Part shown: positions 6,980 to 52,026 of the stretch, piece after piece | Position numbering within the stretch: position 1 is the stretch's first letter | Layout of the letters: every line of letters begins with the position of its first letter | NCBI GenBank assembly: GCA_021776805.1 | Contig: JAJFFD010000210.1 | Location: forward strand, 6,908-70,907 | Length of the DNA stretch: 64,000 bases | Reading direction: 5' to 3' | Source of the DNA: Planctomycetota bacterium | GTDB lineage: Bacteria; Planctomycetota; UBA1135; UBA2386 | The notes under the pieces: generated by a model | Seen by the model: only the letters and a program-made list of their open reading frames with translations | Database searches by the model: none | Told to the model about the DNA's origin: nothing | Translations under genes and position numbers: made by a program

Positions 6980-7498
6980 ATGGCTGAAGACGAAAAGAAG
7001 AAAGAGGACGCCAAGGAAGGCAAGAAGAAGGGATTGCCGCCTCTGGTGCTCGTTGCAGTTGGCGCCGCATTGGGCGGGGCCGGCGTCGTCTTCATGGCAC
7101 CCAAGCAGGAGCAGGTGCAGGACGAACCACGGCCTTCCGTGCCTGAGATCATCGACTGCATGGTCGAAGATCCCATCGAGCACAACTTCAATCCACGCAC
7201 GGATCGTGGGCGCTCGGCCGCAACCTTTAGCTTCAAGTTCAGTTACCGTGTCTCCAAGGATAACGCTGAAGAAGCTGAGGCTCTGCGGGAGAAGAATTGG
7301 GATCTGATGAAGTCCAAGGTGCTCCTGCTGTTCATGCAGCACACACCTGAGGAGCTCACGGACACCAAGGAGAACATCCACCTCGAGAAGCTCATGCGAG
7401 AGACCATGACGCTCTCACTATTTCCGCCCGAAGAAGGTGGAGAAAGCGGCATCGCGGTGGTGAAAGATATCCTCTGGAAGAAGCGTCTCGTGCAATGA
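6980..7498 (+). CDS. fliL: Flagellar basal body-associated protein FliL
   Basis: 172 aa. It has a Lys/Glu-rich N-terminus followed by a single TM (LPPLVLVAVGAALGGAGVVFMAP) and a periplasmic domain. It lies immediately upstream of fliM and overlaps it by 4 nt. Confidence 0.75.
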   Translation: MAEDEKKKEDAKEGKKKGLPPLVLVAVGAALGGAGVVFMAPKQEQVQDEPRPSVPEIIDCMVEDPIEHNFNPRTDRGRSAATFSFKFSYRVSKDNAEEAEALREKNWDLMKSKVLLLFMQHTPEELTDTKENIHLEKLMRETMTLSLFPPEEGGESGIAVVKDILWKKRLVQ

Positions 7499-8493
7499 AG
7501 GAGATCCTCAGCACAGAAGAGATCGATACTCTGCTCGAAATGTTTCGGGCAGAGGAGGCTGAGCTGGATGCTGCGAATGTCGATGCAATCAGTAGCCAGA
7601 TAAGCGAGGACGACGACGCTCCGCTCATCAGTCCTGTAAACCTGCTCAAGCCAAACCGGATTAGCAGGGAGCATCTACTCAGTTTTGAGCGCTACTTTGA
7701 GGCAGCAGCCAAGTCTATGGCTGCAACCATCAGTGAGAAACTGCGCACGGATATCCGCTGCGATTGTGTCGCTGTCGAGCAGCTACGTTTGGGTACCTGG
7801 CTCAATCAGGTTGGAGGGCCGATCGCTGTCTACCAGACGAAGATGGAGCCTCTGTCGCAACCGGTGCTGTTCTCGGCAACGACAGGCTTGCTCTACGCTG
7901 CGGTAGATAGAATCCTGGGCGGCACCGGGGAGATCGTGAAGGTCGTCAAAGAGTTCACAGCTGCTGAATACACAGTGGCGGACGCCTTCGTCGGGCCCTG
8001 CCTCGATCGCATCTGCGAATCGCTCGAAGAGGTCGTCAAGCTCGATTGGACGATCGAAGATCGCTTTGCCAACCCGGCCCTAGCCCAAATCGTGCCCCCG
8101 CATGATGTCGTTCTTGCGGTCTACTTTCAGGCCAGTGGCCACTCCATGCTCGGTGATTTGCGCATGGTCATCCCTTACGCCTCCCTCGAGCCCTACCTGG
8201 GCAAGCTCAGCCATGTGGCCTCGTCGGGCTTCGGGCATGAGCCTGGCAGCATGCGTGAAGCTGTCGCCAAGTCCTTGCAGGAGGTCTCGGTGGACATGAT
8301 GGTCCAGTTGGGTAAGACGAACATCCCCTTGCGTCAGCTGTTAGAGCTGAGTGAAGGAGACGTTGTGCCTCTGAGCACGAACGTCGGTCAAGATCTCGTT
8401 GCTCCGGTGCAGGGAATTCCCAAGTTCACCGGGCAACTTGGAACTCGCGGAAACAGACTCGCCTTTCGTGTAGGAGGCGTCCTCGATAGCTGA
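7495..8493 (+). CDS. fliM: Flagellar motor switch protein FliM
   Basis: 332 aa. The N-terminal LSTEEIDTLLEMF matches the CheY-P binding motif LSQxEIDALL. A C-terminal SpoA-like region (GDVVPLSTNVGQDLVAPVQGIPKFTGQLG) is present. Confidence 0.9.
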   Translation: MKEILSTEEIDTLLEMFRAEEAELDAANVDAISSQISEDDDAPLISPVNLLKPNRISREHLLSFERYFEAAAKSMAATISEKLRTDIRCDCVAVEQLRLGTWLNQVGGPIAVYQTKMEPLSQPVLFSATTGLLYAAVDRILGGTGEIVKVVKEFTAAEYTVADAFVGPCLDRICESLEEVVKLDWTIEDRFANPALAQIVPPHDVVLAVYFQASGHSMLGDLRMVIPYASLEPYLGKLSHVASSGFGHEPGSMREAVAKSLQEVSVDMMVQLGKTNIPLRQLLELSEGDVVPLSTNVGQDLVAPVQGIPKFTGQLGTRGNRLAFRVGGVLDS

Positions 8494-8901
8494 GTGAGGG
8501 CGAAGCAGATGGCTCAAGATGAAATGAACAGCGACGAAGGGATCGGATCGAATCCGCTGGAGAGTTCTTCTGCTGCCGTGCAGCCAGTGAGTTTTGGCCC
8601 CTTGGGTCCGGACATGGCTTCAGGGGGCGAGAACAACAACCTGGATATTCTCCTCGACGTGAACATCCCGGTGTCTGTCGAGGTCGGCGGAACCCATATG
8701 CCCGTGGCTGAGATTCTCAAGCTAGTGCCCGGCAGTATCGTCGCCCTGGAGAAAAAGGCCGAGGAGCCTGTGGATTTGCGGGTCAATGGCAAGTTGGTTG
8801 CTCGCGGTGAGGTTGTCATGGTGGATGACACCTATGGCCTGAGAATCACGCAGATCGTAGATGCTGCTGATCGACTCGAGACTCTGCGAGGCGGAGCCTA
8901 G
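8494..8901 (+). CDS. fliN: Flagellar motor switch protein FliN
   Basis: The C-terminal SpoA domain reads LDILLDVNIPVSVEVGGTHMPVAEILKLVPGSIVALEKKAEEPVDLRVNGKLVARGEVVMVDDTYGLRITQIV. The ORF opens at GTG 8494. ATG 8509, preceded by GAGGG, is an equally plausible start. Confidence 0.9.
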   Translation: MRAKQMAQDEMNSDEGIGSNPLESSSAAVQPVSFGPLGPDMASGGENNNLDILLDVNIPVSVEVGGTHMPVAEILKLVPGSIVALEKKAEEPVDLRVNGKLVARGEVVMVDDTYGLRITQIVDAADRLETLRGGA

Positions 8902-8931: not shown

Positions 8932-11900
8932 TCAGGAACGATCGATAGCCAGGTTCACGAAGTGAATCTTCGTACCTGGCGGAGCCTTCAGAGTCAGAGT
9001 TAGAAAGGCGACAGATTCTCGTTCTGGCCCAGGGATCTCGATGATCGCCGTGTGTAGAGCCTGGCGACCGTGATCCCGTGGCAGGCTGAGGTCTTCGAGT
9101 ACCAATGCGTCCCAGGTAGCGTCTTCGGTGCGGAGATGAGCACTCAGCTGGGCGATCGTCTCTGCCGGCGCATCGGCTTCGAATCCGAGACAGATGCGCA
9201 TGGCGGAGTTGCCGGGAGGTAGGAGCAGAGGGACGACCAGCTCATCCTTCCCATCATCACTGGCTGTCATGCTATGGGTCTCGCCATAGCGAACCGAGTC
9301 CATGAGGAGAACATTGCTGTCCTGTCGGCCCGGCAGTCGGACCTGCTGTCGAGGGATCGCTCGCGGCACTAGGAGCAAGCGATCGAGCTCAGCGGTCCAC
9401 TCTCCACCATCGCCAACCAGGTCTATTTGCAAGCTATGCCTATTCAGGCTGGGTGAGAGGTCGATCTGCGCGAGGATTTCCTTTGGGCCGATCGGAATCC
9501 TTGTCACGATCCGTTCCTCGGCGTCGATCAAGAAGCTCATGTTCCCGCTGCCGGGGCCTTGCTTGCGAACTCGCACGAAGAGGCGTCGGGGATCATCGCT
9601 TGCCGGTACCAGAAACTCGCCGCGAATGCCGGCTCCCCTGGTCGGCCGCATGATCATTCGAAATCCCGAATCGTGCTTTGTGACGGAGCCCAGTCCTTGA
9701 CTCTGCCCGCCAAGTGGTAGGGGCTGGGGTCGATCGAAACGCATGGAGAACCAGCGGGAGCTGCCCAGGTTCATCAGCTCGACTCCCAAGTAGTCGAGTC
9801 GGAGATTCGCGCGTCCATCGTCGCTGCTCTGCAAGTCACGAATCGCCCAAAGCAGTTCGCCATGAATGGTTGCCAGGGAGGGGGCGCTGTCACCGTCGAG
9901 GCTGGCCGCCGAGCGGAAGAGGTCGCCTTCATTCCCTGGAGTGAATGGTGTCCGCGGTGTTGGCGTAATTGGAGATAGCCTGAGGAAGTGCGCCAGGGTT
10001 GACGAGTCTTGAATTTTGACGAAGGGCCGTCGCCCTTCGAATTCCCAATAGATGATGCACCCGCTGCCTGGGAGGCCTGGCTCGGCGTGCGACATTGCCC
10101 TCGACTCGAGAAGTAGATCGCCGCGATCCGGAAGGGAGTCGAAGGGAATGCGGTACAGAGTTCGTCCTTCCTGCAGCGATGACAACTGCAGCTGCCGTCG
10201 GCTGCGAGAGTTCGCATTTCGGGTCGAGCGATTCTGGGGCGGCTTGATTCGCAACTGGTCAGACCAACCCGCGCGGATGAGATTGACTCCCGCCAATCCA
10301 CTGGGGACATGGCCACGTCCCTCAGCGCTCAGCGCCAGTTCGCCGAAATTGCCGTTCTGGGGATCGCGCAGATCGTGCAGGTCATAGAGGCTGTCGACCA
10401 ATTCGAGCAGGGCCTGTCCCGAGCTCAAGAGCGAGCCGTCCACACTACGTTCTGGGACCAGGATACAGGGCAACGACCTGCCCTCCGCGCCCGCCGGCAG
10501 GGTGATGCGTTGCGGGCCGAGTACGCCACTGTGCACGATGAAGAGCAGATCTAGATCAGGATCCTGCAAGCCCATCTCTGCGAGGGACTGCGTTGCAGAC
10601 TTTGCGAGGAGCTCACCAGCAGTTCCAGGATCCGCGGAGAGGGATGAGGAGAGCAGCTGGCTGCGTTGCACATCGAGAGTCCTCCCCCGAATCTCACTCA
10701 ACCCACCCGACATGTTCTGCAGGAGGGTTCTGACCGAACCCGCAGTCATTCGTGTTTCGGGTCCCGGGGTCAATCGATACTGCGGGCCACCGAAGAAGAT
10801 CTGGTTGAGAACCTGTTTGTCCGCGCGAATCGGCGCGTCTGCCAGAGAGAGAGGCAGAATCAAGATGTCGATGACAGAATCCGGATTGCGAAGCGAGCGA
10901 CCCTCTCCCAACTCGGCAACAGACGCGGTCTCGCCTTGGCTTCGATAGAGAATGTGTGCCAGGTTGACCGGATCTGGTGAAGAGGCTGGAACCGAGAAAG
11001 TGAGCGGGAGGTTGCCGTCACGCCAGAGCCTTGGATCGGACAGCTTCAGGCGGACTGCGTGGATACCCTGCAGGTCTTCGCCATCTTCATGCAGTAGCAA
11101 GTCGTCGGTGCTGATGCGAACCCTGCCAGTTAGCAAGAACTCCAAGTCGACGTTTGTGCTCTGAGCTCCTACGGGGAGGGCGTAGGTCAGGCTCTGCTCA
11201 CCAGCTATTCTGCGTGCGTTCTCTCGTCCGTCCGCGAAGCGCACTACCGTGGATCCATCATCACCAACGAGCGCGATCTCCGCGTCGTCGCCGGAGTCCA
11301 GGCGATCCATGCTTCCCAGGCGAATGCTTCTAAACCCAGTCGGCGGAACGGTACTCAGTCGAGCACCTTCCTGATGGATGATTCGGGCACGAAGTTCTGC
11401 TCCCGCTGCAAGCCCTGAGACCAAGACTCCTTCTGTGCCGCGGAGGATGCCCTGTTCCGATTCAATGAGATCGATGCTTTGCAGAACGCCGCGTGCCGTG
11501 GAGATTTCAGCGGTAACCTTGGCTTCCGGACTGAGGGGGCCGCGCAATCGGGCGCTAGGCACCCAAGTCTGATCCATGCTGATCTGCGTGGGTGGCAGGA
11601 ACTCAATGCTGGCGACAAGTTCTGGAACCAGGTCGAGGCCCGCCCTCAGCTGCTGGCTCGTGAACTCGCCAAGTTCCACGCCATTGACCGTGAGCAGGAA
11701 GGACTCGAAGTCGGGCGGGAAGTCACGAAAGGTGATGCTGGCAGGCTGCTGGAACTCTGCATGACTCAGGACTCGGAAGGAAATCTCACCTTCGATCACC
11801 GTCAAGTCTTCGAACCAGAGTGCGTCCAGCCCTTGAGAATCCTGCTTGGCGATTTGGACCACGCCCTGGCCCAGACTTGCGCGCACTTCCTCGACCATCG

Positions 11901-13911
11901 CGATGGCGGCACTCTTGCCCCAAAGGAGGGATTCGGGCTTTGAAGCCTCAGGGCTCCAGCCAGCATCATCCGCAGTCAGGCCGGCTCGTAGGGCGGCCGC
12001 ACCCCTTTCCAGCCACTCGCCCCGGCCCAGGAGTTCGTAGCCTCGGAGGTAGACCCCCGCCGCCAGAGCTTCGACCGGGTCTCCCCAGATCACTGCATCG
12101 TTGCCCCGGCTCAGCCCGCCCTGCTGCTGGCCCGGCATCCAGCCAGGAGTCCAAACCTGCTGATGAAAGCTGATGGCAGAAAGGAAATCGTCTGCTCTGT
12201 CCAGGAGCGAGGGGTCCCCGCTGGCATCGATGAGAATCAAGCAGGCTCGCGCTGCCAGGCAGAGGAGAAAGGGGTTGCGGGTGTTGTTGCCGCTGCGCGG
12301 GTCGACGAGCCCTGGGCTTTCGCCAGGTGCTCGTATGGGCGCCGGCCAGACCGCCTTGGCCAAGGCCTCGACTTCGAGAAAGTCGATCGCCTTGCGGGCG
12401 GCTGCCAGGACCCGTTCGTCTTTGGTCTGACTGGCATACTCGGCCAGGAACATCGCCGGACCGGCTGTGTCCGCTGCCCACTTGGGATCTTCGAGAGGCT
12501 CGAGGAATTCGCGACCATACCAGACCGGTATGGCCCCATTGCTGTGCTGATTGAGGAGGAAGAAGTAGGCCAGTTTCCTGCAGGCTTCGAGACTATCGGC
12601 GCGTCGTTCCGGGAGGAGCTCGGCTGTCTTCAGCATCCAGTATCCGGAGACTGCGGAGTCCAGTCCGTGATGTCCCAGTGCCGAAGATGCTTCGGTGGAT
12701 CCGAGTTCCCATGTGTTGCGCGTCGCATCGACGCTGGACGCGAAGCGCGCGGGGATCAAGCCGGCTCGTCGTGGCGCAGCGAGGACCAGATCCAAGATTC
12801 GCCGCGCATAGTCCTGCAGCTCCGGTTGCGAATCCCGTGATGCGCGACTTGCCATGACGAAGGCGAGGCGGAGGAGTTGCTCTTCTGAATCGAAGCGTGC
12901 TTCGATGCCGCTGGACGCGTCCTTCAGTGCGCCCGCAGCGATCTCACCCAGATCTACTTCTTGCCAGTTTTCGGCGAGGATCCGATCGAGGTAGGCTGCA
13001 CAAATCTGCTCCCAGGTCCGTTCTTCCATGGGTGCGGCGGATCGCTTCAGGTCAGCGGACATGTAGCGTCGCCATACCTGGCTCTGTGCGGCCGCGAGAG
13101 TCTTGTGCTGAGATGCTGCTGCGTCGATCTGGAGAAAATGGCCAAAGCTGAGGGTCTCAGCTCGGACCTGCACACCCTCGGCATCGGCGCTGGTAAAGAC
13201 ACGTCGCCCAAAGGGCCCATCCGGAACCTCTTGAGCCTGTGCCATGAGGCCATGCCGAATACTTGCCGGCTTGCGACTTACGACCAGGCCCTGAGGAAGG
13301 CGCCGCTGTTGCAGGAGTAGTTCCAGATCGGGGCTGAGGGCGAGGGAGCGTGAGCCGGCGCGAAGGAAGGCCACTGGAGCCTGAAAGGCAAGATCCCCGG
13401 CGAGCTCGAATTCTCCGGGGTGGAGGTGAGGAGTGGAGCTCTCGTCGATCGGGGCTTCGCGGAGAAACTCGTAGTTCAGGCTCAACTCGAGGAGGGTGCT
13501 CCTGACTCCGACCTGGTCCAGCAAGAGCACACGCAAGTCGCCCGTCGATTCCCTCTCGATCCGGACACTGACTTCGTGACCAAGACTCGGGCGGCAATGC
13601 AGCTGCAGTGCATTCTCCTCTCTCTCGATTTCGACGAAAGGCAGGAGCTGATCTCTGCGAGCGCCTCCTCTCTCGATGGCGAGGTTTACGCCGGACAGCT
13701 TCGCTACGTCGATCGAGAGCTCGCCGGTCTTGGCGGTGAAGGTGACGGTCAAGTCCTCACCCTGACGGGCGGCGCTTACCTGCAGGCTGCTCCCCGACTG
13801 CGTTTCTGCAAACTCGAGACTGTCGTTGCCACCGCTCTTGCAGGCGAAGAGCAACAGTAGCAGCGCCAGGCAGGGGCCAGACCTGGGATCTTGGACTTGG
13901 AGCGAGGACAC
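8932..13911 (-). CDS. Giant (1659 aa) predicted lipoprotein of unknown function
   Basis: This is a single uninterrupted ORF. The N-terminus has a hydrophobic core plus lipobox (LALLLLLFAC-KSGG). Internal regions look like an alpha-helical toroid (about 12000-12780) and an M6-peptidase-like fold lacking HExxH (about 10258-10870). All long ORFs on the opposite strand within it look like GC artefacts. Confidence 0.75.
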   Translation of the reverse strand: MSSLQVQDPRSGPCLALLLLLFACKSGGNDSLEFAETQSGSSLQVSAARQGEDLTVTFTAKTGELSIDVAKLSGVNLAIERGGARRDQLLPFVEIEREENALQLHCRPSLGHEVSVRIERESTGDLRVLLLDQVGVRSTLLELSLNYEFLREAPIDESSTPHLHPGEFELAGDLAFQAPVAFLRAGSRSLALSPDLELLLQQRRLPQGLVVSRKPASIRHGLMAQAQEVPDGPFGRRVFTSADAEGVQVRAETLSFGHFLQIDAAASQHKTLAAAQSQVWRRYMSADLKRSAAPMEERTWEQICAAYLDRILAENWQEVDLGEIAAGALKDASSGIEARFDSEEQLLRLAFVMASRASRDSQPELQDYARRILDLVLAAPRRAGLIPARFASSVDATRNTWELGSTEASSALGHHGLDSAVSGYWMLKTAELLPERRADSLEACRKLAYFFLLNQHSNGAIPVWYGREFLEPLEDPKWAADTAGPAMFLAEYASQTKDERVLAAARKAIDFLEVEALAKAVWPAPIRAPGESPGLVDPRSGNNTRNPFLLCLAARACLILIDASGDPSLLDRADDFLSAISFHQQVWTPGWMPGQQQGGLSRGNDAVIWGDPVEALAAGVYLRGYELLGRGEWLERGAAALRAGLTADDAGWSPEASKPESLLWGKSAAIAMVEEVRASLGQGVVQIAKQDSQGLDALWFEDLTVIEGEISFRVLSHAEFQQPASITFRDFPPDFESFLLTVNGVELGEFTSQQLRAGLDLVPELVASIEFLPPTQISMDQTWVPSARLRGPLSPEAKVTAEISTARGVLQSIDLIESEQGILRGTEGVLVSGLAAGAELRARIIHQEGARLSTVPPTGFRSIRLGSMDRLDSGDDAEIALVGDDGSTVVRFADGRENARRIAGEQSLTYALPVGAQSTNVDLEFLLTGRVRISTDDLLLHEDGEDLQGIHAVRLKLSDPRLWRDGNLPLTFSVPASSPDPVNLAHILYRSQGETASVAELGEGRSLRNPDSVIDILILPLSLADAPIRADKQVLNQIFFGGPQYRLTPGPETRMTAGSVRTLLQNMSGGLSEIRGRTLDVQRSQLLSSSLSADPGTAGELLAKSATQSLAEMGLQDPDLDLLFIVHSGVLGPQRITLPAGAEGRSLPCILVPERSVDGSLLSSGQALLELVDSLYDLHDLRDPQNGNFGELALSAEGRGHVPSGLAGVNLIRAGWSDQLRIKPPQNRSTRNANSRSRRQLQLSSLQEGRTLYRIPFDSLPDRGDLLLESRAMSHAEPGLPGSGCIIYWEFEGRRPFVKIQDSSTLAHFLRLSPITPTPRTPFTPGNEGDLFRSAASLDGDSAPSLATIHGELLWAIRDLQSSDDGRANLRLDYLGVELMNLGSSRWFSMRFDRPQPLPLGGQSQGLGSVTKHDSGFRMIMRPTRGAGIRGEFLVPASDDPRRLFVRVRKQGPGSGNMSFLIDAEERIVTRIPIGPKEILAQIDLSPSLNRHSLQIDLVGDGGEWTAELDRLLLVPRAIPRQQVRLPGRQDSNVLLMDSVRYGETHSMTASDDGKDELVVPLLLPPGNSAMRICLGFEADAPAETIAQLSAHLRTEDATWDALVLEDLSLPRDHGRQALHTAIIEIPGPERESVAFLTLTLKAPPGTKIHFVNLAIDRS

Positions 13912-13943: not shown

Positions 13944-13979
13944 AGAAGGGGGCAGGCTCGAGTGAGCCTGCCCCCTTCT
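13944..13979 (-). terminator. Strong hairpin (16-bp perfect stem, 4-nt loop) downstream of the porin gene
   Basis: AGAAGGGGGCAGGCTC (13944-13959), loop GAGT, then GAGCCTGCCCCCTTCT (13964-13979). It lies 41 nt after the porin stop and before the lipoprotein start. The flanks are T-rich within and after the stem (CCCCCTTCTGTGT on the minus strand). Confidence 0.6.
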
Positions 13980-14019
13980 TGATTCAGCCTAGCCGAATCC
14001 AGCCAGGCTGGAGTGGCGC

Positions 14020-15369
14020 TCAGAAGGCCAGGGTGAAGATCAGGTCGACGCCGTGGTTGTCGTCGTTGCCGACGCCGGCCACGTTATCCGGATCCGCATG
14101 CTGATAGGTGTAGGTCAGCTGGGTCTTCAGAGCGTGCTTGTGATAGTAGGCACTCGCCATCAGCTGGTACTCCATGATGTCGCCTTCGGCGCCCACCGGG
14201 TATCCCACTGCTGGAGCCAGACCGAAGGGGTCATTGCCGATGCCACCTGCACCGAGAATGGGATCGCCCTGACCGCTTTCCATGCCGGCGGCGTTCATGA
14301 AGATCGGCGGATCCTTGAAGTCGATCATGCTCACCCGGGCGCCAAAGGCGTACTGGGTGCCATCGTCCGGCGGCATGGTGTAGGAGCCTTGCACGTAGAA
14401 GCCATTGGAGTCCGCGCTGGGAACACCGGCCAGGTCCGCATCATCCTTGCGAGCGAAGAACTCGCCGGCTGCCGCGAAGCCATTGCCGAGCTTGAGGGCG
14501 GCATTGAGGTTGACGGTGGTTGATTCCACGTCGCCTTGGGCAATGCCGACATCAGCGTTTCCGAAGAGGACGCTGGCGCCAAGGCTGGAGGTCATGCTTC
14601 CACTGTGTTCCAAGTCGCCTTCCGAGTAGGCCATCTCGCCCTGCGGGTCGAAGCGGACACCGACGATGTAGTTGAGCTCGTTGTCGCCGACACCAGCCCC
14701 GTCCAGGTTTGTGGATTCGGGCGCCGCTGAAATCGACCCGGCTGCCAGGTCGTTGTTCATGGTGCCGAGGAACCAGTGCAACTTCTTGCCGCCGTTATCA
14801 TCGTTGAGCCCCGAGCCGAGGAACAAAGCGCCGGTCGAACGGGCTGAACCAAAGACTCGCGTGGCGAGAGCGCGATTGCTGAACTCCTGTTTCTGGGAGG
14901 AGATCGTGCCCTGACGGCTCTCTAACATCTTCTGGGTGCCCATGCGCAGGCCCAGGGTGTAGTGGTCCGTGTTATAGAAGTTGTAGCGGACCCAGGCGTC
15001 CTTGATCGACGAGTCATCGCTGTCGATGAAGTCGGTCTGCACCTTGTAGGTGAGCTCCCGGTCCCAGACGTGGCCGCTGAAATTCATGCGAACCCGCTTG
15101 GTGCGGAAGCTGTTGGTGTCCGGATTGCTATCCAGGGCCAAGTAGTACCACTTGATCTGGAAGTAGCTCTTCAGGTTGAGTGAGAAGTCATCACCACCGT
15201 CAAAGGTGATGCCTTTGCCGGGCTGGAAGGTCACCTTTGGTGCCTGCAGCGTGCCAGCCTTGGGAGGATCTTCCCCTCCCTTCTTCTTGTCGCCATTTGG
15301 TTCGTTGCCGGCCACCGCGAATGCGGTCGTGGCCAAGACTGCGAGGCCGAATCCGATTGGACTCTTCAT
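14020..15369 (-). CDS. Outer-membrane beta-barrel porin
   Basis: 449 aa. It has a signal peptide (MKSPIGFGLAVLATTAFAVAG), alternating amphipathic beta-strand pattern with aromatic girdles, and a C-terminal ...VDLIFTLAF ending in Phe, as in OMP sorting signals. Confidence 0.75.
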   Translation of the reverse strand: MKSPIGFGLAVLATTAFAVAGNEPNGDKKKGGEDPPKAGTLQAPKVTFQPGKGITFDGGDDFSLNLKSYFQIKWYYLALDSNPDTNSFRTKRVRMNFSGHVWDRELTYKVQTDFIDSDDSSIKDAWVRYNFYNTDHYTLGLRMGTQKMLESRQGTISSQKQEFSNRALATRVFGSARSTGALFLGSGLNDDNGGKKLHWFLGTMNNDLAAGSISAAPESTNLDGAGVGDNELNYIVGVRFDPQGEMAYSEGDLEHSGSMTSSLGASVLFGNADVGIAQGDVESTTVNLNAALKLGNGFAAAGEFFARKDDADLAGVPSADSNGFYVQGSYTMPPDDGTQYAFGARVSMIDFKDPPIFMNAAGMESGQGDPILGAGGIGNDPFGLAPAVGYPVGAEGDIMEYQLMASAYYHKHALKTQLTYTYQHADPDNVAGVGNDDNHGVDLIFTLAF

Positions 15370-15631: not shown

Positions 15632-17554
15632 ATGGGTACAGAGCTCAGGAGAAGCACATGCAATCGCGACTGCCCCGATGCCTGCGGGCTGATTGCAGAG
15701 GTGGAGGATGGTCGCCTTCTAAGTCTCAAGGGTGACCCGGAGCACCCGGTTACTCGCGGCTTTCTTTGCACACGGACCAGCCGTTTTCCAGAACTCCTCG
15801 GTGGCGAGGACCGTCTGCGCCAGCCTCTCATGCGAGTGGATGGGAAGCTCCAAGCCTGCACTATGACACAGGCACTCGACTACGCTGCGGAGAGGCTCGC
15901 TGCGATTCGGGCGGAATCCGGGCCGGCAGCAATCTTCCACTATCGCTCGGGGGGGAGTCTCGGGCTGTTGAAGTCCGTGGCGGATCGCTTCTTTGAGCAG
16001 TTCGGGCCCTGCACGAGCAAGAGCGGTGACATCTGCAGTGGCGCCGGTGAAGCGGCGCAAGAGGCGGATTTTGGAGTCAGTGACAGCAACGACTTCTTCG
16101 ATCTGGATCGCAGCAAGCACATCGTCATCTGGGGCAAGAACCTTTTTGTCAGCAACATCCACCTGATTCCTCAGATTCGGAAGGCGCGGGCAGAAGGGCG
16201 GAAGGTCTGGCTCATAGACCCGGTGCACCACAAGGGCGCCAGCCTCGCCGACCGCTTTCTGCAGCCTTGTCCCGGCGGAGACCTGGACCTCGCTCTGGGT
16301 GTCATGCGAGTCCTCTTGGACCGCGATGCCTTGGACCCGAAGGCCGCGGAGTTTTGTGCCAACCTGGACGCATGCATCGAGCTGATCCGATCCAAGTCCG
16401 TTGCTGAGTACGCTCTCGCGGCGGATCTTGAGGTGGAAGCCTTGGTGGACCTGGCGGAGGCTTTTCGCGATGGGCCGACAGCCATCCTGGTGGGTTGGGG
16501 AATGCAGCGCCGTTTGGCGGGAGGGAGCATCGTTCGCGCTCTGGATGCCCTGTCCGCCCTCAGCGGCAATCTCTTCCGGCCCGGAGGCGGGAGTTCCTTC
16601 TACTTCGGGCGACGAACTGCCTTCGATGTTTCAGCGGTCAGTTCTGCTGCAGCAGCGCGCCACATTCGTGAGCCACTCTTCGGTCCAGACGTTCTCGCGG
16701 CCCAGGATCCGCCGATTCGTGCCATCTGGGTGACCGCTGGCAATCCGGTCTGCATGCTTCCGGACTCCAAGCAGGTTGCCGAAGCTCTGGAGCGGACTGA
16801 GTTCGTGGTGGTGGTCGACCCATTCCTGACCGACACAGGCAGGCGTGCTGACCTGGTCTTGCCAGTGCCCAGCCTCCTCGAGGATGATGACTTGCTCGGT
16901 GCTTATGGGCACCACTGGATTGGCGAGAGTCGACCGATTCTGTCACCACCGCCTGGAGTCCTGCACGAAGTCGAGCTCTTCCAAGGCCTGGCATCGCGCC
17001 TGGGGCTGTCGGCGGCCATGTCCGGGAGCGTAGACGAGTACAAACGGAGATTGCTGGGCAAGGTTGAGGGCCATGGGCTCAGCCTGGAGAAGCTCCGCGA
17101 GGGTCCGCAGCGGAACCCGCTTGCTACTGAGCAGCTCTTTGATGAGGCTCGCGTGCGCTCAGCCGACGGCAAGGTGCAGCTTATCTCAGAGCGTCCGGAG
17201 ACCCCTGCAGGGGCGGGGGACGCGGGCGATCTCTGGTTCTTGAGTCTCTCTAGTATTCGTTCCCAGGCCTCCCAGTGGTCGCGGGATCCCGGGGCTCTGC
17301 TGGAAGTGACGGTGCATCCGGACTCCGCTCCTGGGATGGCGACTGGAGACGAGGTCGCGGTGGAAAACGCGATGGGTTCCATACCTGCGCGCCTGATTCT
17401 GGACTCGCAGCAACGGCGTGATGTCGCCCTGTATCCGAAGGGTGGGCACTTTGATCGCGGCCAGTCGGCGAACGCACTCATTCAGGCTCGATGCACGGAC
17501 ATTGGCCTGGGTGCAGCCTTCTTGGATTGCCGCGTGAGGATTCGCAGACTGTGA
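15632..17554 (+). CDS. Molybdopterin-dependent oxidoreductase (bis-MGD family, substrate unknown)
   Basis: 640 aa. The N-terminal Cys cluster STCNRDCPDACG...GFLCTR resembles the 4Fe-4S domain of the family. It also has molybdopterin-binding core motifs (VIWGKN, WVTAGNP) and a C-terminal beta-barrel domain (LEVTVHPDSAPGMATGDEVAVENAMGSIPARL). Confidence 0.85.
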   Translation: MGTELRRSTCNRDCPDACGLIAEVEDGRLLSLKGDPEHPVTRGFLCTRTSRFPELLGGEDRLRQPLMRVDGKLQACTMTQALDYAAERLAAIRAESGPAAIFHYRSGGSLGLLKSVADRFFEQFGPCTSKSGDICSGAGEAAQEADFGVSDSNDFFDLDRSKHIVIWGKNLFVSNIHLIPQIRKARAEGRKVWLIDPVHHKGASLADRFLQPCPGGDLDLALGVMRVLLDRDALDPKAAEFCANLDACIELIRSKSVAEYALAADLEVEALVDLAEAFRDGPTAILVGWGMQRRLAGGSIVRALDALSALSGNLFRPGGGSSFYFGRRTAFDVSAVSSAAAARHIREPLFGPDVLAAQDPPIRAIWVTAGNPVCMLPDSKQVAEALERTEFVVVVDPFLTDTGRRADLVLPVPSLLEDDDLLGAYGHHWIGESRPILSPPPGVLHEVELFQGLASRLGLSAAMSGSVDEYKRRLLGKVEGHGLSLEKLREGPQRNPLATEQLFDEARVRSADGKVQLISERPETPAGAGDAGDLWFLSLSSIRSQASQWSRDPGALLEVTVHPDSAPGMATGDEVAVENAMGSIPARLILDSQQRRDVALYPKGGHFDRGQSANALIQARCTDIGLGAAFLDCRVRIRRL

Positions 17555-18915
17555 AGCGCATCACCGGCACGAACATCTACAGTATGTTCAAGTGCCCACG
17601 GATGGTGGCCTTGGATCTTCACGCCGACCGGAGTCTGCGTCGCGAAGTCCGTGCAGAAGAGGAGTTTCTTTTGCAGCGCGGGCGCGACCACGAGGCGCGC
17701 ATCGTCGCGGAATTGGGCTGGCCGGAGCCCGAGTATCCGACTGCCCAGTTCGAGCAGGGTGCCGAGCTCAGCTTGCAGATGATGCAGTCCGGCATGGAGG
17801 GGATCAGCCAGGCTGTGCTCATCGATGCGGACTACCTTGGGATTCCCGACTTGCTGCGTCGGCAAGAGGGTTCGTCCGTGTTTGGTGATTACCAATACGA
17901 AGTCGGTGACATCAAGTCCTCGAGTCGGCCGCGCAGTGATCAGGTATTGCAGGTGGCTTTCTACAGTCGTCTCCTGGGCAAGCTGCAGGCCAAGGTTCCT
18001 GAGTACGGCTACCTTGTCTTGAAGGATGGCAGCGAGGAGAGGTTTGCGCTCGGCGAACTTGACCCGGTGCTCGACGAGCTCATAGAGGACTTGTGTGCGC
18101 TCCGCGAGAATCCGGATGAAGTCGAACCCTTCTTCAGCAGGGCCTGCGATAGCTGTCTATGGTCCGACCTCTGTCTGCAGGAGATGCGCGCAGCGGGTGA
18201 TCTCTCATTTGTGCATGGCGTGACCAGGGGAATCAGGCGCTCGCTCCGTGTCGCTGGGATCGATTCCGTGACGAACTTGTCCAGGGCCAAGGTCGAGCCG
18301 GCAGCAAGGGCGTCTGGGCTCGAAGCGACCCTGCTGCGAAGACTCAAGAAGGCTGCGCAGGCAAGGATGAGTGGCGAGCCCGTTCTCGAGAAGCGCGGCA
18401 AGGGCGAGTCCCTCGGCTCTGCGGCAGTGCTGCACTTCTTGACAGACCCCTATGCGGAGCGAGTGCTCTTCATGGGTCTGCTCAGGCCTCGTGAAAACGA
18501 GGCGGAGTTCCTTGCTCACTGCCCGCAATCGGTAGAAGAGGAGCTGCCTGCCTTCGAAGACCTGCTTGCTCAGCTACCCAGTCGATTGCGGATACTCCAC
18601 TACGGCTCTGGCATTCCCCGTTGGCATGAGAATCGTGCTCACGGATCGGTGGCATCTGTGGGGTTTGAGCGTCGACTCATCGACATGGCTAGGCAACTTC
18701 GTGGGGCTGCCGTGTTTCCGGCGCCGATCTTCGGTCTTGATGAGCACGTGAGTGCCGGACTGTCCCGCGATCCGCATAGAAAGGGCAGGGCATCAGCAGC
18801 GGCCTATGCGGTCACCGATGCGCAAGATGGCGATTGGCTCATGAGCAAGGGGCGGAGTGATCTCGAGGACTTACTCGCTCTCAAGGAGCGGTACTTGGGA
18901 GACGAAGAGGATTGA
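17551..18915 (+). CDS. RecB/Cas4-like PD-(D/E)XK nuclease with 4-Cys Fe-S signature (TM0106-type)
   Basis: I place the start at GTG 17551, overlapping the upstream stop (GTGA). The ORF opens earlier at 17491 but would then overlap the upstream gene. Motifs seen are FKCPRM (N-terminal Cys), GIPDLL, YEVGDIKSS (D/ExK), QVAFY (QxxxY) and CDSCLWSDLC (CxxCx5C). The C-terminal half carries an HhH-like GVTRGIRRSLRVAGIDSV. Confidence 0.75.
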   Translation: MKRITGTNIYSMFKCPRMVALDLHADRSLRREVRAEEEFLLQRGRDHEARIVAELGWPEPEYPTAQFEQGAELSLQMMQSGMEGISQAVLIDADYLGIPDLLRRQEGSSVFGDYQYEVGDIKSSSRPRSDQVLQVAFYSRLLGKLQAKVPEYGYLVLKDGSEERFALGELDPVLDELIEDLCALRENPDEVEPFFSRACDSCLWSDLCLQEMRAAGDLSFVHGVTRGIRRSLRVAGIDSVTNLSRAKVEPAARASGLEATLLRRLKKAAQARMSGEPVLEKRGKGESLGSAAVLHFLTDPYAERVLFMGLLRPRENEAEFLAHCPQSVEEELPAFEDLLAQLPSRLRILHYGSGIPRWHENRAHGSVASVGFERRLIDMARQLRGAAVFPAPIFGLDEHVSAGLSRDPHRKGRASAAAYAVTDAQDGDWLMSKGRSDLEDLLALKERYLGDEED

Positions 18916-20780
18916 AGTCCCTGTCCCTTGAAGAACGCCTGATTCGCTTCCTCGAACGCGAAGAAGAGGATGAGCGGAAGAGTTCCCGAGACCTGCGCGC
19001 CTTGGCCATTGAAGAGCGTGTGCTAGAAGGGGAGTGTATTCGTGATGCGATTCTGCGTGAGCAGCAAGGTGATCGCTTCACCTTCAGCCTGGAAGAAAAC
19101 CTCAGCAAGTTTAGGAACGGCGACCCATTGACAGTGGGTGATGGCTTGGATTTTCAGGAGGCTTGCCCGCTGGTCTATGGGGACTATGACTCGATCGAGA
19201 GGAAGCTGATTCTGCGGCGAGACCCCTTCCAGCGTGGAGCCACACCGAGACTCGTGCCGGGTGTTAGTTACTGCATCGATCGGCGCCACTTGGGTATCCG
19301 CGGGCGCTTGCGTGATGTAGTTCGAGCTGCCTTCGAAGATGAGCTCCTCGCCTCGGTCCTGATGGGGGAGCACAAGCCCGAGCGCGACGAGGAGCGTCTC
19401 TTGCGCGCGCAAGAAGCTTTGAGCAAACGTGGTCTCAACGAGACTCAGTTCCTTGCGGGCACGAATGCCATTGCCAGCGATAGCTTGTCCTTGATCCAGG
19501 GGCCTCCGGGCACCGGCAAGACTCGACTCCTCGCTGAGATCATGCGAGTGCTCTGTGCATCGGGATGCAAGATCGCTCTCAGCGCCTTCACGCATCGTGC
19601 GGTTGACAATGCTCTCATGGCTCTCGCGCGGATCGCTCCGGAAATTCCCTTGGTGAAGTTAGGTCGGCCCGGACCTGGGACCCAAGCTCTCACGCGTGCA
19701 GGGATTCGCTTCGAAGATCCGCGACGGGGCCGGATGCCCCAGGAAGGCGCGGTAGTCGCCGGGACTTGCTTCGCTCTCGCCAAGTTGCCCGCTAGAGAAC
19801 GCTTTCATTTCACCGTCTTTGACGAAGCCGGTCAGCTGCCGATTCCGCACGCCTTGGCGGGGATGTTGCTCGCGCGTCGCTGGATCTTCTTTGGTGATCA
19901 TCGTCAGCTCCCGCCGGTGATCACGGCTGAGCATGTCGATCGGGAAGTCCAGCAGTCCATCTTTGAGCGGCTACACGGGTTTTATGGCGGCGACATGCTC
20001 GATGAGACCTACCGCATGAACGATGCGCTTTGCGCGGTCGTGAGCGATCTCTTCTATGGCGGCGGCCTCAAGTCAGCGCCTTCGTCGGCAGCACGTCGCC
20101 TGAGTTTCACTGCCGGTGGCAAGCTCGACGCTGTCCTGGATCCAGAGCACTCCGTGGTCTTCGCCAGGGTCGATCATCTGCAACCGGGGCAGAGGTCCAC
20201 GGAAGAAGCTAGATTGGTGGCGGACCTAGTGGCGGACTTGATCGAACATCATGGACTCGAGCCTGAGTCCCTTGGGGTGATCGCCCCCTTTCGGGCTCAG
20301 GTTCGCTTGCTGCGGGCAAGTTGCCAGCGGCGCGGGGTGAGGGATCTGGACAAGATCACCATCGACACCGTCGAACGCATTCAGGGGCAGGAGAGAGAGG
20401 TGATCATTCTCTCGCTTGCGGTGGGAGATCCAGACACTCTCAATGCGCGTGCGGCCTTCTTCTTCTCCAAGAACCGTCTCAACGTCGCGTTGTCCAGAGC
20501 GCGGAGCAAAGCCATTCTCGTCGCTTCCTCCGCTGCCTTCCGCGCGCTGCCACAAGACCCTGACAGCCTTCGGGCGGTCGCGGTTTTTCGTCGACTGGCT
20601 ACAGAGCTGCATCAGGTCGATCTCAGCTCACTCTATTGCAGCAGTTCTGACAGCAAGCCTGCGAAGGAACGGAAATCAAAAGCCGATCGCAGCCAGGGCA
20701 AGGTAGCCAGCAAAAAGCAAGAGGCCGAGAGCCAGGCCAAGCAGGAAGGTACGCAGGAAATGGGCGAAGCCGCCATGTAG
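18912..20780 (+). CDS. Superfamily 1B (Upf1/Dna2-like, AAA_11/AAA_12) DNA helicase
   Basis: 622 aa. The TTG start overlaps the nuclease stop (TTGA). Helicase motifs seen are GPPGTGKT, VFDEAGQ, GDHRQLPPV, ETYRMN, TIDTVERIQGQEREVIILS and NVALSRAR. The tail is Lys/Glu-rich. Confidence 0.85.
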   Translation: MKSLSLEERLIRFLEREEEDERKSSRDLRALAIEERVLEGECIRDAILREQQGDRFTFSLEENLSKFRNGDPLTVGDGLDFQEACPLVYGDYDSIERKLILRRDPFQRGATPRLVPGVSYCIDRRHLGIRGRLRDVVRAAFEDELLASVLMGEHKPERDEERLLRAQEALSKRGLNETQFLAGTNAIASDSLSLIQGPPGTGKTRLLAEIMRVLCASGCKIALSAFTHRAVDNALMALARIAPEIPLVKLGRPGPGTQALTRAGIRFEDPRRGRMPQEGAVVAGTCFALAKLPARERFHFTVFDEAGQLPIPHALAGMLLARRWIFFGDHRQLPPVITAEHVDREVQQSIFERLHGFYGGDMLDETYRMNDALCAVVSDLFYGGGLKSAPSSAARRLSFTAGGKLDAVLDPEHSVVFARVDHLQPGQRSTEEARLVADLVADLIEHHGLEPESLGVIAPFRAQVRLLRASCQRRGVRDLDKITIDTVERIQGQEREVIILSLAVGDPDTLNARAAFFFSKNRLNVALSRARSKAILVASSAAFRALPQDPDSLRAVAVFRRLATELHQVDLSSLYCSSSDSKPAKERKSKADRSQGKVASKKQEAESQAKQEGTQEMGEAAM

Positions 20781-49936: not shown

Positions 49937-50059
49937 GCTATGGACATCGGCCCTTCCCCCCTTGTTCCTGAGTTCGGAGCCTGGATCTTCGGTGGCAAGA
50001 GGTCTTGGCCGGCTGATGCTTCCGTGACCGATGCTCCGAGCTAAGATCCAGCCTAGCCA

Positions 50060-51070
50060 ATGTTCGTGTATCTGACGAAGCGGCTGCTTTGGATGATCCC
50101 CTCTCTCTTTGGGATCAGCCTGCTGATTTTCTTGCTTCTCGACCTTGTGCCGGCAGACCGGGCCGAAGTCGAGATGCAGCGCGTGAGCGCGAATCAGGAT
50201 CGTGCAGCGAGGGAGGAAGGAATCATCAACCTTCGCATCCGCTACGGTCTGATTGATCGGGTGACTCACGAGCCCCGTTCAGTCTGGGAGCGCTACTGGA
50301 ACTGGGTGCTGCACGCATCCCAGTTGGACTTCGCGGACCCTAGCGAAGATTCCGCGCTCTTCCGTCAACGCTTCCTCTCTGCTCTCTCCGTCAGCGCCTT
50401 GATCGGATTAAGCGCCATGCTGGTCGCTCTGATCATCGGCTTGGTTCTTGGCGGCTACCTTGGAATGCGCGCGGGTGGTCTGCTGGACCGAGGAGTCTCG
50501 GGCATTCTCTTGGTTTGCTACGGACTTCCCGAGTTCCTCCTCGCAACCCTGGTAGTTCTAGCCATCAGCAGTGAAGCGCTGATGGGAATGTTTCCTGGCG
50601 CTGGCCTGCGTTCTCCAGGTGCGGAGAATTGGTCGCTGAGCGAGCAGGTACTCGATCTGGGCTGGCACCTCATGCTGCCGGTCTTGATCATTGCCCTCGG
50701 ACCGGCAACGACCCTGCTGCGTTTCGTTCGCGAGTCTGTGGCGCGGGCGGCGCGCAGGCCCTTCGTCCAATCCCTGCGTGCCTGGGGTTTCGAAGAACGG
50801 CAGATTCGTGCACGGGTTCTCAGGCATGGCCTCACTCCCCTGGCGACAATGGCCAGCACCCTTCTGCCCATGTTGGTCTCCGGTTCCCTCGTCGTGGAGA
50901 TGGTCTTTGCCCTGCCCGGCCTGACGCCAATGATCTACGAGGCGATCAATGCCCGCGAGTACGCCCTGGTAATGGCGGGCTTGATGTTGGTGGCGATCGT
51001 GGTCCTGGTCTCCATGGTCATCTCGGATGTCCTCCAGCGCTGCTTCGATCCGCGGGTGAGCTTGCGATGA
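50060..51070 (+). CDS. ABC transporter permease, OppB/DppB family
   Basis: 336 aa. The N-terminus KRLLWMIPSLFGISLLIFLLLDLVP and an EAA-like loop region (FVQSLRAWGFEERQIRARVLRHGLTP) are typical of peptide/nickel permeases. Confidence 0.88.
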   Translation: MFVYLTKRLLWMIPSLFGISLLIFLLLDLVPADRAEVEMQRVSANQDRAAREEGIINLRIRYGLIDRVTHEPRSVWERYWNWVLHASQLDFADPSEDSALFRQRFLSALSVSALIGLSAMLVALIIGLVLGGYLGMRAGGLLDRGVSGILLVCYGLPEFLLATLVVLAISSEALMGMFPGAGLRSPGAENWSLSEQVLDLGWHLMLPVLIIALGPATTLLRFVRESVARAARRPFVQSLRAWGFEERQIRARVLRHGLTPLATMASTLLPMLVSGSLVVEMVFALPGLTPMIYEAINAREYALVMAGLMLVAIVVLVSMVISDVLQRCFDPRVSLR

Positions 51071-52026
51071 GGATCCTCAGCAGCTTCGTTCTCTGGAGCT
51101 TCCTCCTGGTGGCCGCCCTGGCACCCTTTCTCGCTGGCGATCGGCCCTTCATGGCCCGAGTGGCCGGCGAGCTCAGCTTCCCTGGTCTCTCGAGCTATCT
51201 CGGGACTGAGGAACCCGGTCCTGCCGGGCAGACCTGGCGGCAGTGGTGGTTGAGTCTGGACAGCAGTTCGGAGGACTGGGGGATCATGCCGATCTGGATG
51301 CAGGGTCCAGAGGAGGTTCACGAGGATCTATTCCTCGCTGGACCCAGTGACAGCCATCCCCTGGGCAACGATGACACCGGTCGAGACCAGTTGTCGCGCC
51401 TGATCCACGGTGCCCTGCGCGCCCTGACTGTGGCCTTGGGAACCGTCTGCCTCGGGATTCTGATCGGGGTTCCCCTCGGCGCCCTGGCCGGGCTGCGTGG
51501 CGGCTGGACTGATATCCTGGTCCTGCGTGCCATGGAGGTCTTCCTCTGCTTCCCCGGTGTCCTGGCGATCCTGGCTGCCGCCGCTTTCTTCGGCGGCAGC
51601 ACATGGCTGGTCATCCTCGTTCTGGGGATCGTCTACTGGCCTGCCTTTGCCCGCATTGTCCGTGGCGAATTCCTTTCCCTGCGTGAGCGCGAGTTTGTGC
51701 ATGTTGCTCGCAGTCTCGGCATCTCGGCTCCGGCCATCCTCTTCCGGCACATGCTGCCCTGTATCAAAGGGCAGGTCTATGTCACCGCCGCCTTCGTCGC
51801 TGCCAATGCCATCATCGCCGAGTCCACCCTCTCCTTTCTCGGTCTCGGTGCTGGTCTGAGAGAGGTTTCCTGGGGTGGGATGCTCGCCCAGGGGAAGACA
51901 CACGCGGCCGGTCCGGCCTGGCATCTCTGGCTCTTTCCAGCAATTGTGGTCGTCGCCGTGATCCTCAGCCTGCACGCATTGGCGGACAGGATGGCCAAGC
52001 CCGCCAGAGATCAGGCCATAAGATAA
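51067..52026 (+). CDS. ABC transporter permease, OppC/DppC family
   Basis: 319 aa from ATG 51067 (ATGA overlap). It carries the HPLGNDDTGRDQLSRLIHGA signature and the EAA loop EFVHVARSLGISAPAILFRHMLP. Confidence 0.88.
   Translation: MRILSSFVLWSFLLVAALAPFLAGDRPFMARVAGELSFPGLSSYLGTEEPGPAGQTWRQWWLSLDSSSEDWGIMPIWMQGPEEVHEDLFLAGPSDSHPLGNDDTGRDQLSRLIHGALRALTVALGTVCLGILIGVPLGALAGLRGGWTDILVLRAMEVFLCFPGVLAILAAAAFFGGSTWLVILVLGIVYWPAFARIVRGEFLSLREREFVHVARSLGISAPAILFRHMLPCIKGQVYVTAAFVAANAIIAESTLSFLGLGAGLREVSWGGMLAQGKTHAAGPAWHLWLFPAIVVVAVILSLHALADRMAKPARDQAIR

Follow-up and report, generated by a model that had tools for sequence, protein, structure and literature searches.

A predicted planctomycete lipoprotein that combines a glycosidase-like barrel with an M6-like domain without a zinc site and is encoded next to a porin gene

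The 64,000-nucleotide stretch of Planctomycetota DNA analysed here (contig JAJFFD010000210.1 of assembly GCA_021776805.1, referred to as the window) contains at positions 8932..13911 of the minus strand a gene for a predicted lipoprotein of 1659 amino acids (aa). The open reading frame (ORF) list and the translation give one uninterrupted frame with a GTG start, the coordinates including the stop codon, as in a preliminary description that had noted a single ORF of about 5 kb; every peptide quoted in that description was located in the translation at the place given for it. An identical protein is already recorded in NCBI without a name (P0001). That the gene encodes a real protein is seen from its approximately 35 full-length homologues and its confident AlphaFold2 models. 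Directly upstream on the same strand, at 14020..15369, lies a gene for an outer-membrane porin of the Porin_O_P family (Pfam PF07396, E 1.3e-8), in keeping with the porin gene placed there earlier, and flagellar genes run toward the 3' end of the lipoprotein gene.

The protein begins with MSSLQVQDPRSGPCLALLLLLFAC, in which a hydrophobic stretch of 10 residues is followed by the lipobox L-F-A-C24. The signal peptide and lipobox are encoded at 13840..13911 (minus strand), and Cys24 is the predicted lipidation site. The signal peptide fits the lipobox pattern [LVI][ASTVIF][GAS]C and departs from one strict PROSITE side rule, as the first 7 residues contain no Lys or Arg (R10 is the only one). Of 33 full-length homologues, about 26 (79%) retain a Cys in the column of Cys24. 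Most of the homologues have classic LAGC or LAAC boxes, and the five most distant ones have ordinary signal peptides. The signal sequence and lipobox recognised earlier are thus borne out, and the prediction of a lipoprotein is supported by a lipobox cysteine that is conserved across the family.

Sequence searches with the whole protein were nearly empty. There was no Pfam match at E up to 10, the sole NCBIfam match (TIGR03296 being among the models searched) was a 12-bit 'MiiA motif' far under cutoff, PHROGs gave nothing usable and phmmer found no match in the PDB. The standard annotation tools are therefore blind to this lipoprotein. Patterns back-translated from its peptides retrieved no relative from GTDB genomes. 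A word-indexed search of 5.8 billion proteins returned only three sequences, even with a profile: the query, a fragment with 73% identity recorded as from a Planctomycetota metagenome-assembled genome (MAG) and a full-length protein with 30% identity. When a three-sequence profile of aa 280-1479 was run in an exhaustive HMMER scan at a cutoff of E <= 1e-3, 358 proteins were found, which fall into two groups. In the first are about 35 proteins, 1500-1750 aa long, whose alignments run from end to end at 20-35% identity. All of these full-length homologues come from metagenomes, and they apparently form an unannotated planctomycete family. The second and larger group consists of proteins of approximately 750-870 aa that match only the N-terminal third of the lipoprotein (aa ~335-765).

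The short relatives have no Pfam assignment. Their sub-threshold matches are scattered among GH127, GH88, GH76, GH47, C5-epimerase and PL10, and one of them (L128, 6001-8397) adjoins a GH51 arabinofuranosidase and sugar dehydrogenases within a sugar-metabolism cluster. As an observation in its own right, the short proteins (P0045-P0088 and similar), which have a beta-sandwich and a six-hairpin barrel, are a candidate new glycoside-hydrolase-like family. The papers searched contained no description of the full-length family or of its combination of domains. The family and its architecture are new and unannotated, and they are built from recognisable folds. In Planctomycetota, a phylum in which the biology of the envelope is poorly known, it is common to find large multidomain envelope proteins that are restricted to one lineage.

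The AlphaFold2 models are confident for both halves of the protein, with a mean pLDDT of 94.0 and a pTM of 0.94 for aa 25-970 and a mean pLDDT of 91.6 and a pTM of 0.89 for aa 960-1659. The N-terminal half begins with a beta-sandwich at aa 29-265 (13117..13827, minus strand), modelled as strands at model residues 6-239 with pLDDT >90. It is followed by an (alpha/alpha)6 six-hairpin barrel at aa 270-680 (11872..13104, minus strand), in which AlphaFold2 places 13 long helices, also with pLDDT >90. Three beta-sandwich domains at aa 683-970 (11002..11865, minus strand), delimited by predicted secondary structure and conservation, complete this half, and a short linker of low confidence (aa ~971-1001) leads to the C-terminal half. 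The conserved motifs D872-x-G-D-D-x-E878 and D959-x-R-L-W963 lie within aa 683-970. In the region of the third beta-sandwich, aa 872-891 (window 11238-11297) read as an acidic L-D-x-G-D-D-x-E followed by F-x-D-G-R-E-x-A-R; the acidic motif is a possible Ca2+-binding loop, and it is on this region that the insignificant 'MiiA motif' match falls.

When the model of aa 25-970 was compared with the PDB by Foldseek, the matches were GH94 cellobiose phosphorylases, the GH63 enzyme YgjK and GH116 beta-glucosidases, in addition to GH15 dextran dextrinase, GH127 and GH76. The order of beta-sandwich and then barrel is common to the lipoprotein and to the GH94, GH63 and GH116 matches, and the AGE-family epimerases match the barrel alone with a target TM of 0.57-0.62. 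The family profile also gave weak matches to six-hairpin proteins in the PDB (AprG at 1.6e-5, GH76 at 1.6e-3 and also PL10). With the 13 predicted helices, the barrel agrees with the approximately 12 helices of the six-hairpin (alpha/alpha)6 superfamily, so that the toroid-like helical repeats described earlier were correctly read as far as the fold goes. The region that had been assigned to them (aa 378-637) lies inside the barrel and is too narrow. The three peptides quoted from it, GHHGLDSAVSGYWMLKTAELL (aa 413-433), LNQHSNGAIPVWYG (aa 453-466) and AGPAMFLAEYAS (aa 483-494), are all within the barrel. A bacterial alpha-2-macroglobulin was also considered, given the similar size (~1650 aa), the lipid anchor and the toroid. 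It was rejected, without a search for the CxEQ thioester motif, because there are no A2M Pfam domains, the toroid is N-terminal, which is the wrong order, and TEP1 is a weak match (Foldseek TM 0.2).

Does the barrel still have the residues of an enzyme? The short relatives conserve the acidic loop motif W-F-D-F-E-T, with W and D each present in 38/39 sequences and E in 35/39, and a second acidic loop motif, Q-N-T-D-x-E-W-S-D-A-R-Q. From its conservation and its position in a loop, W-x-D-x-E is the putative catalytic motif of the short proteins. In the full-length members D524 is present in 19/32 and E526 in 11/32. The lipoprotein itself reads W522-P-A524-P-I526-R, and the 30%-identical homologue (P0003) has a deletion at this position. 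None of the acidic residues of the barrel is invariant across the full-length family. Mapping of catalytic residues through the alignments with GH76 and AprG gave no result, since those alignments span the hairpin repeats only. We infer that the activity of the barrel may have been lost in this protein.

The main alternative is that the protein is an active carbohydrate-processing enzyme, in which the barrel would carry out hydrolysis, lysis or epimerisation with other residues while the M6-like and beta-sandwich domains bind or position the substrate. The N-terminal beta-sandwich and barrel do follow one another as they do in real enzymes (GH94, GH63, GH116 and GH15), a short relative sits among sugar-metabolism genes beside the GH51 arabinofuranosidase, and Q455, Q584, R636 and R642, and in part D611, are more than 85% conserved in both the short and the long groups. 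The missing invariant acid in the full-length family speaks against such an enzyme, as does the replacement of the best-conserved acids of the short family, D524 and E526, by A and I here and their deletion in P0003. No curated glycoside hydrolase (GH), polysaccharide lyase (PL) or epimerase model matches at threshold. We regard an active enzyme as a serious alternative that is nevertheless rather unlikely.

The C-terminal half has a domain of mixed alpha/beta structure at aa ~1002-1300, and from residue 306 of the C-terminal model onward the prediction is all-beta with pLDDT >90. The first domain (10012..10908, minus strand) has the fold of an M6 (InhA)-like metallopeptidase. Searches of HMM against sequence gave no sign of this, even with a profile of 33 domain sequences; neither TIGR03296 nor the M6 models of Pfam matched the lipoprotein at E up to 10, and a Pfam scan of each of the 33 M6-like domains gave no M6 match. 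The family profiles of this region matched only generic helical-repeat and DnaJ-like beta-hairpin proteins in the PDB. As these searches were blind to M6, an independent reference alignment was built. A degenerate DNA pattern for HE[FY]GHxLGLPDxY located 120 loci in GTDB genomes, and the 480-residue windows around the motif were thinned to 54 sequences of less than 60% identity. Three sampled members match TIGR03296 with E 2e-44 to 2e-86, which verified the set.

The family alignment of aa 1005-1300 matched this M6 set in hhalign with a probability of 98.1% and E 6.7e-14 over 253 columns, and in the control runs E was 0.27 for a reversed template and 0.58 for one with shuffled columns. With the profile of the full-length family the match had E 8e-12 over 335 columns. 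The landmarks of M6 are matched in order along the alignment. The family motif h-h-V-x-P-x-x-x-x-D of the first strand corresponds to vlvilveFsD of M6, T-A-G-S-V-x-x-L-x-x-x-x-S-G-G-x-T-x-L-x-G-x-V to gS-x-x-x-YY-x-e-x-S-x-G-x-x-x-x-x-G-x-V, and D-x-x-x-V-V-H-x-G to vD-x-v-x-ivHaG. Further on, G-N-F-G-x-L-A-L...G-H-x-P...G-W corresponds to vG-x-W-x-lM...P...lGW and L-x-L-E-x-R...G-L-L-x-Y-W to flvE-x-R...G-x-x-iW. In the Foldseek comparison of the C-terminal model, Bacillus anthracis InhA2 (4YU6) had the highest TM-score (0.26) and the longest alignment (649-679 columns), with E 7e-8. By E-value the best matches were tandem CBM-like beta-sandwiches (EngBF, CBM22, CBM51 and the C-terminal domains of Vip3), and aa 1301-1659 (8935..10011, minus strand) form C-terminal beta-sandwich domains of a jelly-roll, CBM- or MAM-like type. 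By profile-profile comparison and predicted structure, aa ~1002-1300 are homologous to the M6 metalloprotease domain. The M6-like region noticed earlier is therefore real; the limits that had been given for it (~10258-10870) are too narrow.

It had also been noted that the sequence at the expected HExxH position reads LELVD and that the domain would be dead. The peptides concerned are LLELVD at aa 1168-1173 (nt 10393-10410) and DSLYDL...IRAGW at aa 1173-1216, and hhalign places HEFGHxLGLPD of M6 on LELVDSLYDLHD, that is, on this same LELVD. HExxH falls on L1169-E1170-...-S1174, within a degenerate zinc-binding segment L1169-E1170-L-V-D-S1174-L-Y-D-L-H-D1180 encoded at 10372..10407 (minus strand). 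Among 33 members the column of the first His has A in 12, L in 7, R in 5 and no His, the Glu column has A in 15 and E in 3, and the column of the second His has A in 19. The third zinc ligand in M6 is the Asp of HExxHxxGxxD. The column aligned with the Asp of LGLPD, which holds D1180 in the lipoprotein, has D in 14/33. A regular-expression search found no HExxH anywhere in the protein and none at the aligned position in the 33 members; no intact site that would rescue the domain lies elsewhere.

The residues of the fold have been kept. Complete or almost complete conservation is seen at S1059, S1068, G1187, G1190, P1203, W1216, E1269 and R1271; S1059 and W1216 do not vary at all, and H1201, E1269 and G1187/G1190 are more than 90% conserved. 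Conservation of the fold residues together with absence of the zinc site is what characterises a pseudoenzyme domain that is maintained by selection. Could the domain instead be an active protease whose non-canonical site, formed by H1201, D1158, E1269 and other family-specific residues, has replaced HExxH? These three residues are conserved in 30/33, 27/33 and 31/33 members, respectively, and nothing in the M6 consensus corresponds to H1201. E1269-x-R1271, on the other hand, matches the E-x-R motif that is structural in normal M6 domains, all four canonical ligand or catalytic positions are degenerate and mostly Ala, and we know of no fold of the metzincin or M6 type that functions when the HExxH helix is lacking. 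A non-canonical protease is thus highly improbable. No description of a dead M6 module in Planctomycetes was found in the literature searched.

The position of the gene directly after a porin gene, which had been pointed out before, was examined on the contigs of seven homologues, which together with the window give eight loci. In 8/8 loci, including that of the 22%-identical homologue P0034, the lipoprotein gene is immediately preceded on its own strand by a gene of 419-439 aa at a distance of 47-146 nt. This upstream gene has a Pfam match to Porin_O_P in 6/8 loci, of which three are weak or faint, and no such match is on record in L124 and L126. Conservation of the pairing across the loci suggests that the porin is no mere incidental neighbour. 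The protein identities between the window and L001 are 59% for FliM, 58% for the Mo-oxidoreductase, 37% for the porin and 30% for the lipoprotein. The porin and the lipoprotein are the fastest evolving of these, a pattern of sequence divergence that is compatible with envelope-exposed and possibly co-evolving proteins.

The spacer of 108 nt between the two genes contains two hairpins of 11 and 16 bp by RNA folding (13944..14010, minus strand). The spacer folds with -67.8 kcal/mol, a z of -7.2 relative to shuffled sequences. It had been described as holding the terminator of the porin gene. The strong hairpins are indeed present, but they have no U tract and were not called by a scan for consensus terminators, and for these reasons termination is unproven. 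A terminator, an attenuator or a processing site are all possible, and the hairpins could set the ratio of porin to lipoprotein expression.

On the other side of the lipoprotein gene, FliM (7495-8493) and FliN (8494-8901, plus strand) are encoded toward its 3' end, and FliN converges on it with a gap of 30 nt, which agrees with the earlier account of a gene convergent on the flagellar operon. Flagellar genes adjoin in 6/8 loci (the window, L001, L123, L124, L125 and L126) and are convergent in five of them. In L125 (10936-14398) the block of fliJ ... fliL, fliM and fliN is inverted and follows the lipoprotein gene in the same orientation. Haem-biosynthesis genes take the place of the flagellar genes in L002, and the contig ends there in L127. 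Beside the porin gene a divergent block is conserved (window 15632-20780, plus strand; also in L001, L002, L123-L125 and L127) that encodes a molybdopterin oxidoreductase (640 aa), a protein of 474 aa and an SF1 helicase (AAA_11/AAA_12, 622 aa). The block of L127 has no oxidoreductase, and the 474-aa protein, taken to be a nuclease, has no Pfam match in the window and orthologues with faint matches to PDDEXK_1 or Cas4. Farther away, the window has a region of strong AT skew (-0.277) relative to the rest at 50001-52000, with overlapping long plus-strand ORFs (50060-51070 and 50629-52026) and no tandem repeat.

The proximity of fliM and fliN would be explained if the lipoprotein were an envelope component associated with the flagellum, such as a lipoprotein of a disk or collar linked to the outer membrane, comparable to FlgP or FlgT in other bacteria. 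The flagellar genes do adjoin in most of the loci, and in L125 they have remained adjacent through an inversion. The haem-biosynthesis neighbours in L002 count against this role, and the lipoprotein gene, by converging on fliN in most loci, belongs to a separate transcription unit. The adjacency also has little independent weight when the entire region is syntenic, and there is no similarity to known flagellar proteins in Pfam, NCBIfam or PDB. We consider a flagellar function very doubtful.

The interpretation that we tentatively favour, with slightly less than even confidence, is that the protein is a non-catalytic binding or scaffold lipoprotein that works with the adjacent porin. It would be a lipoprotein of the cell envelope assembled from two enzyme-derived modules. 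The N-terminal half supplies a GH-like beta-sandwich and (alpha/alpha)6 barrel followed by the three beta-sandwich domains, a module in common with the barrel-only proteins of about 800 residues, and the C-terminal half supplies an InhA-type M6 unit, in which the catalytic-domain fold is followed by the C-terminal beta-sandwich domains. The M6 zinc site is missing throughout the lineage, the acids that the barrel-only relatives conserve have been lost in this protein, and the residues of the fold have been kept. The resulting protein would be a ligand-binding or scaffold partner of the upstream Porin_O_P-type channel; one possibility is that it captures a polymer, glycan or glycopeptide, at the membrane and hands it to the pore. 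The resemblance of the C-terminal domains to carbohydrate-binding modules in the Foldseek matches is consistent with this role.

Several observations weigh against a non-catalytic partner of the porin. D524 is still kept in 19/32 full-length members, and the polar residues conserved in the barrel (Q455, Q584, R636, R642, D418 and D611) could, from their conservation, be an active site that has not been recognised. Since Q455, Q584, R636 and R642 are more than 88% conserved in both the short and the long groups, the barrel may have residual or altered activity. H1201 could likewise be part of a new site. As to the porin, two strong hairpins between the genes mean that they may be transcribed separately. 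The whole neighbourhood is syntenic across the lineage, so adjacency may reflect shared ancestry and not function, and the proof that adjacency can give is limited because the full-length members are all at one orthologous position in one lineage. If the pairing is inherited synteny only, the result reduces to a well-described hypothetical protein.

If the non-catalytic reading is true, two different enzyme folds may have turned non-catalytic in one envelope protein, which would be a useful example of pseudoenzyme evolution. An InhA-type module can persist under selection after loss of the zinc site and be invisible to ordinary HMM searches. The approximately 35 full-length members and few hundred barrel-only relatives make up a protein family outside the coverage of Pfam and NCBIfam, and the invariable pairing with a porin offers a concrete starting point for work on how Planctomycetota capture nutrients.

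How does the protein compare with known systems? It resembles M6 peptidases and six-hairpin glycosidases and descends from them, and by its lack of HExxH and of any family-model match it falls outside M6 and outside any specific CAZy family. The fold and domain order of aa 29-680 are the same as in GH94, GH63 YgjK, GH116 and GH15, and the likeness to the AGE-family epimerases is limited to the barrel. The hairpin motif L-x-x-N-Q-x-x-D/N-G-x-I-P of the lipoprotein is typical of six-hairpin and prenyltransferase-like toroids. It differs from the six-hairpin glycoside hydrolases, phosphorylases and epimerases by an identity of only 8-15%, by matching no curated model (none of the Pfam models for GH15, GH63, GH76, GH88/105, GH94, GH116, GH127 and PL10 matches) and by having no conserved pair of catalytic acids. 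The nearest sequence relatives of its barrel are the unannotated proteins of about 800 residues and not known GH families.

The M6 peptidases (InhA and PrtV; TIGR03296; 4YU6) have a catalytic-domain fold that is homologous to the M6-like domain, and in both InhA2 and the lipoprotein beta-sandwich domains come after the catalytic-type fold. M6 peptidases are secreted zymogens, whereas here the domain is fused behind a GH-like module of about 1000 residues and is lipid-anchored. The lipoprotein also differs in having no HExxH and no conserved third ligand and in being missed by the TIGR03296 and Pfam M6 models. Dead M6 modules have a precedent, since NCBIfam already contains NF052323, the 'T9SS-dependent M6-like inactivated metalloprotease', an inactive M6-derived domain carried by a large protein of the envelope or surface. 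The NF052323 model gives partial matches to true M6 proteins and does not match the lipoprotein at E up to 10. Sorting differs as well, a lipobox in one case and a T9SS C-terminal domain, for which the lipoprotein was not checked, in the other. Judged by its name and model length, NF052323 lacks the six-hairpin module that the lipoprotein has.

A functional comparison can be made with SusC/SusD and surface glycan-binding lipoproteins and with TbpA/TbpB, and it is an analogy only. The lipoprotein is related neither in sequence nor in fold to SusD or TbpB, and its partner barrel would be a Porin_O_P-type diffusion porin and not a TonB-dependent transporter. By this analogy the porin and the lipoprotein might form a previously undescribed two-component outer-membrane module, a porin-based analogue of SusCD and TbpAB in which domains that were once enzymes serve as polymer receptors; we think this unlikely. 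The likeness on which it is based is that of a large lipoprotein with CBM-like beta-sandwiches encoded beside, and in the same orientation as, the gene for an outer-membrane beta-barrel.

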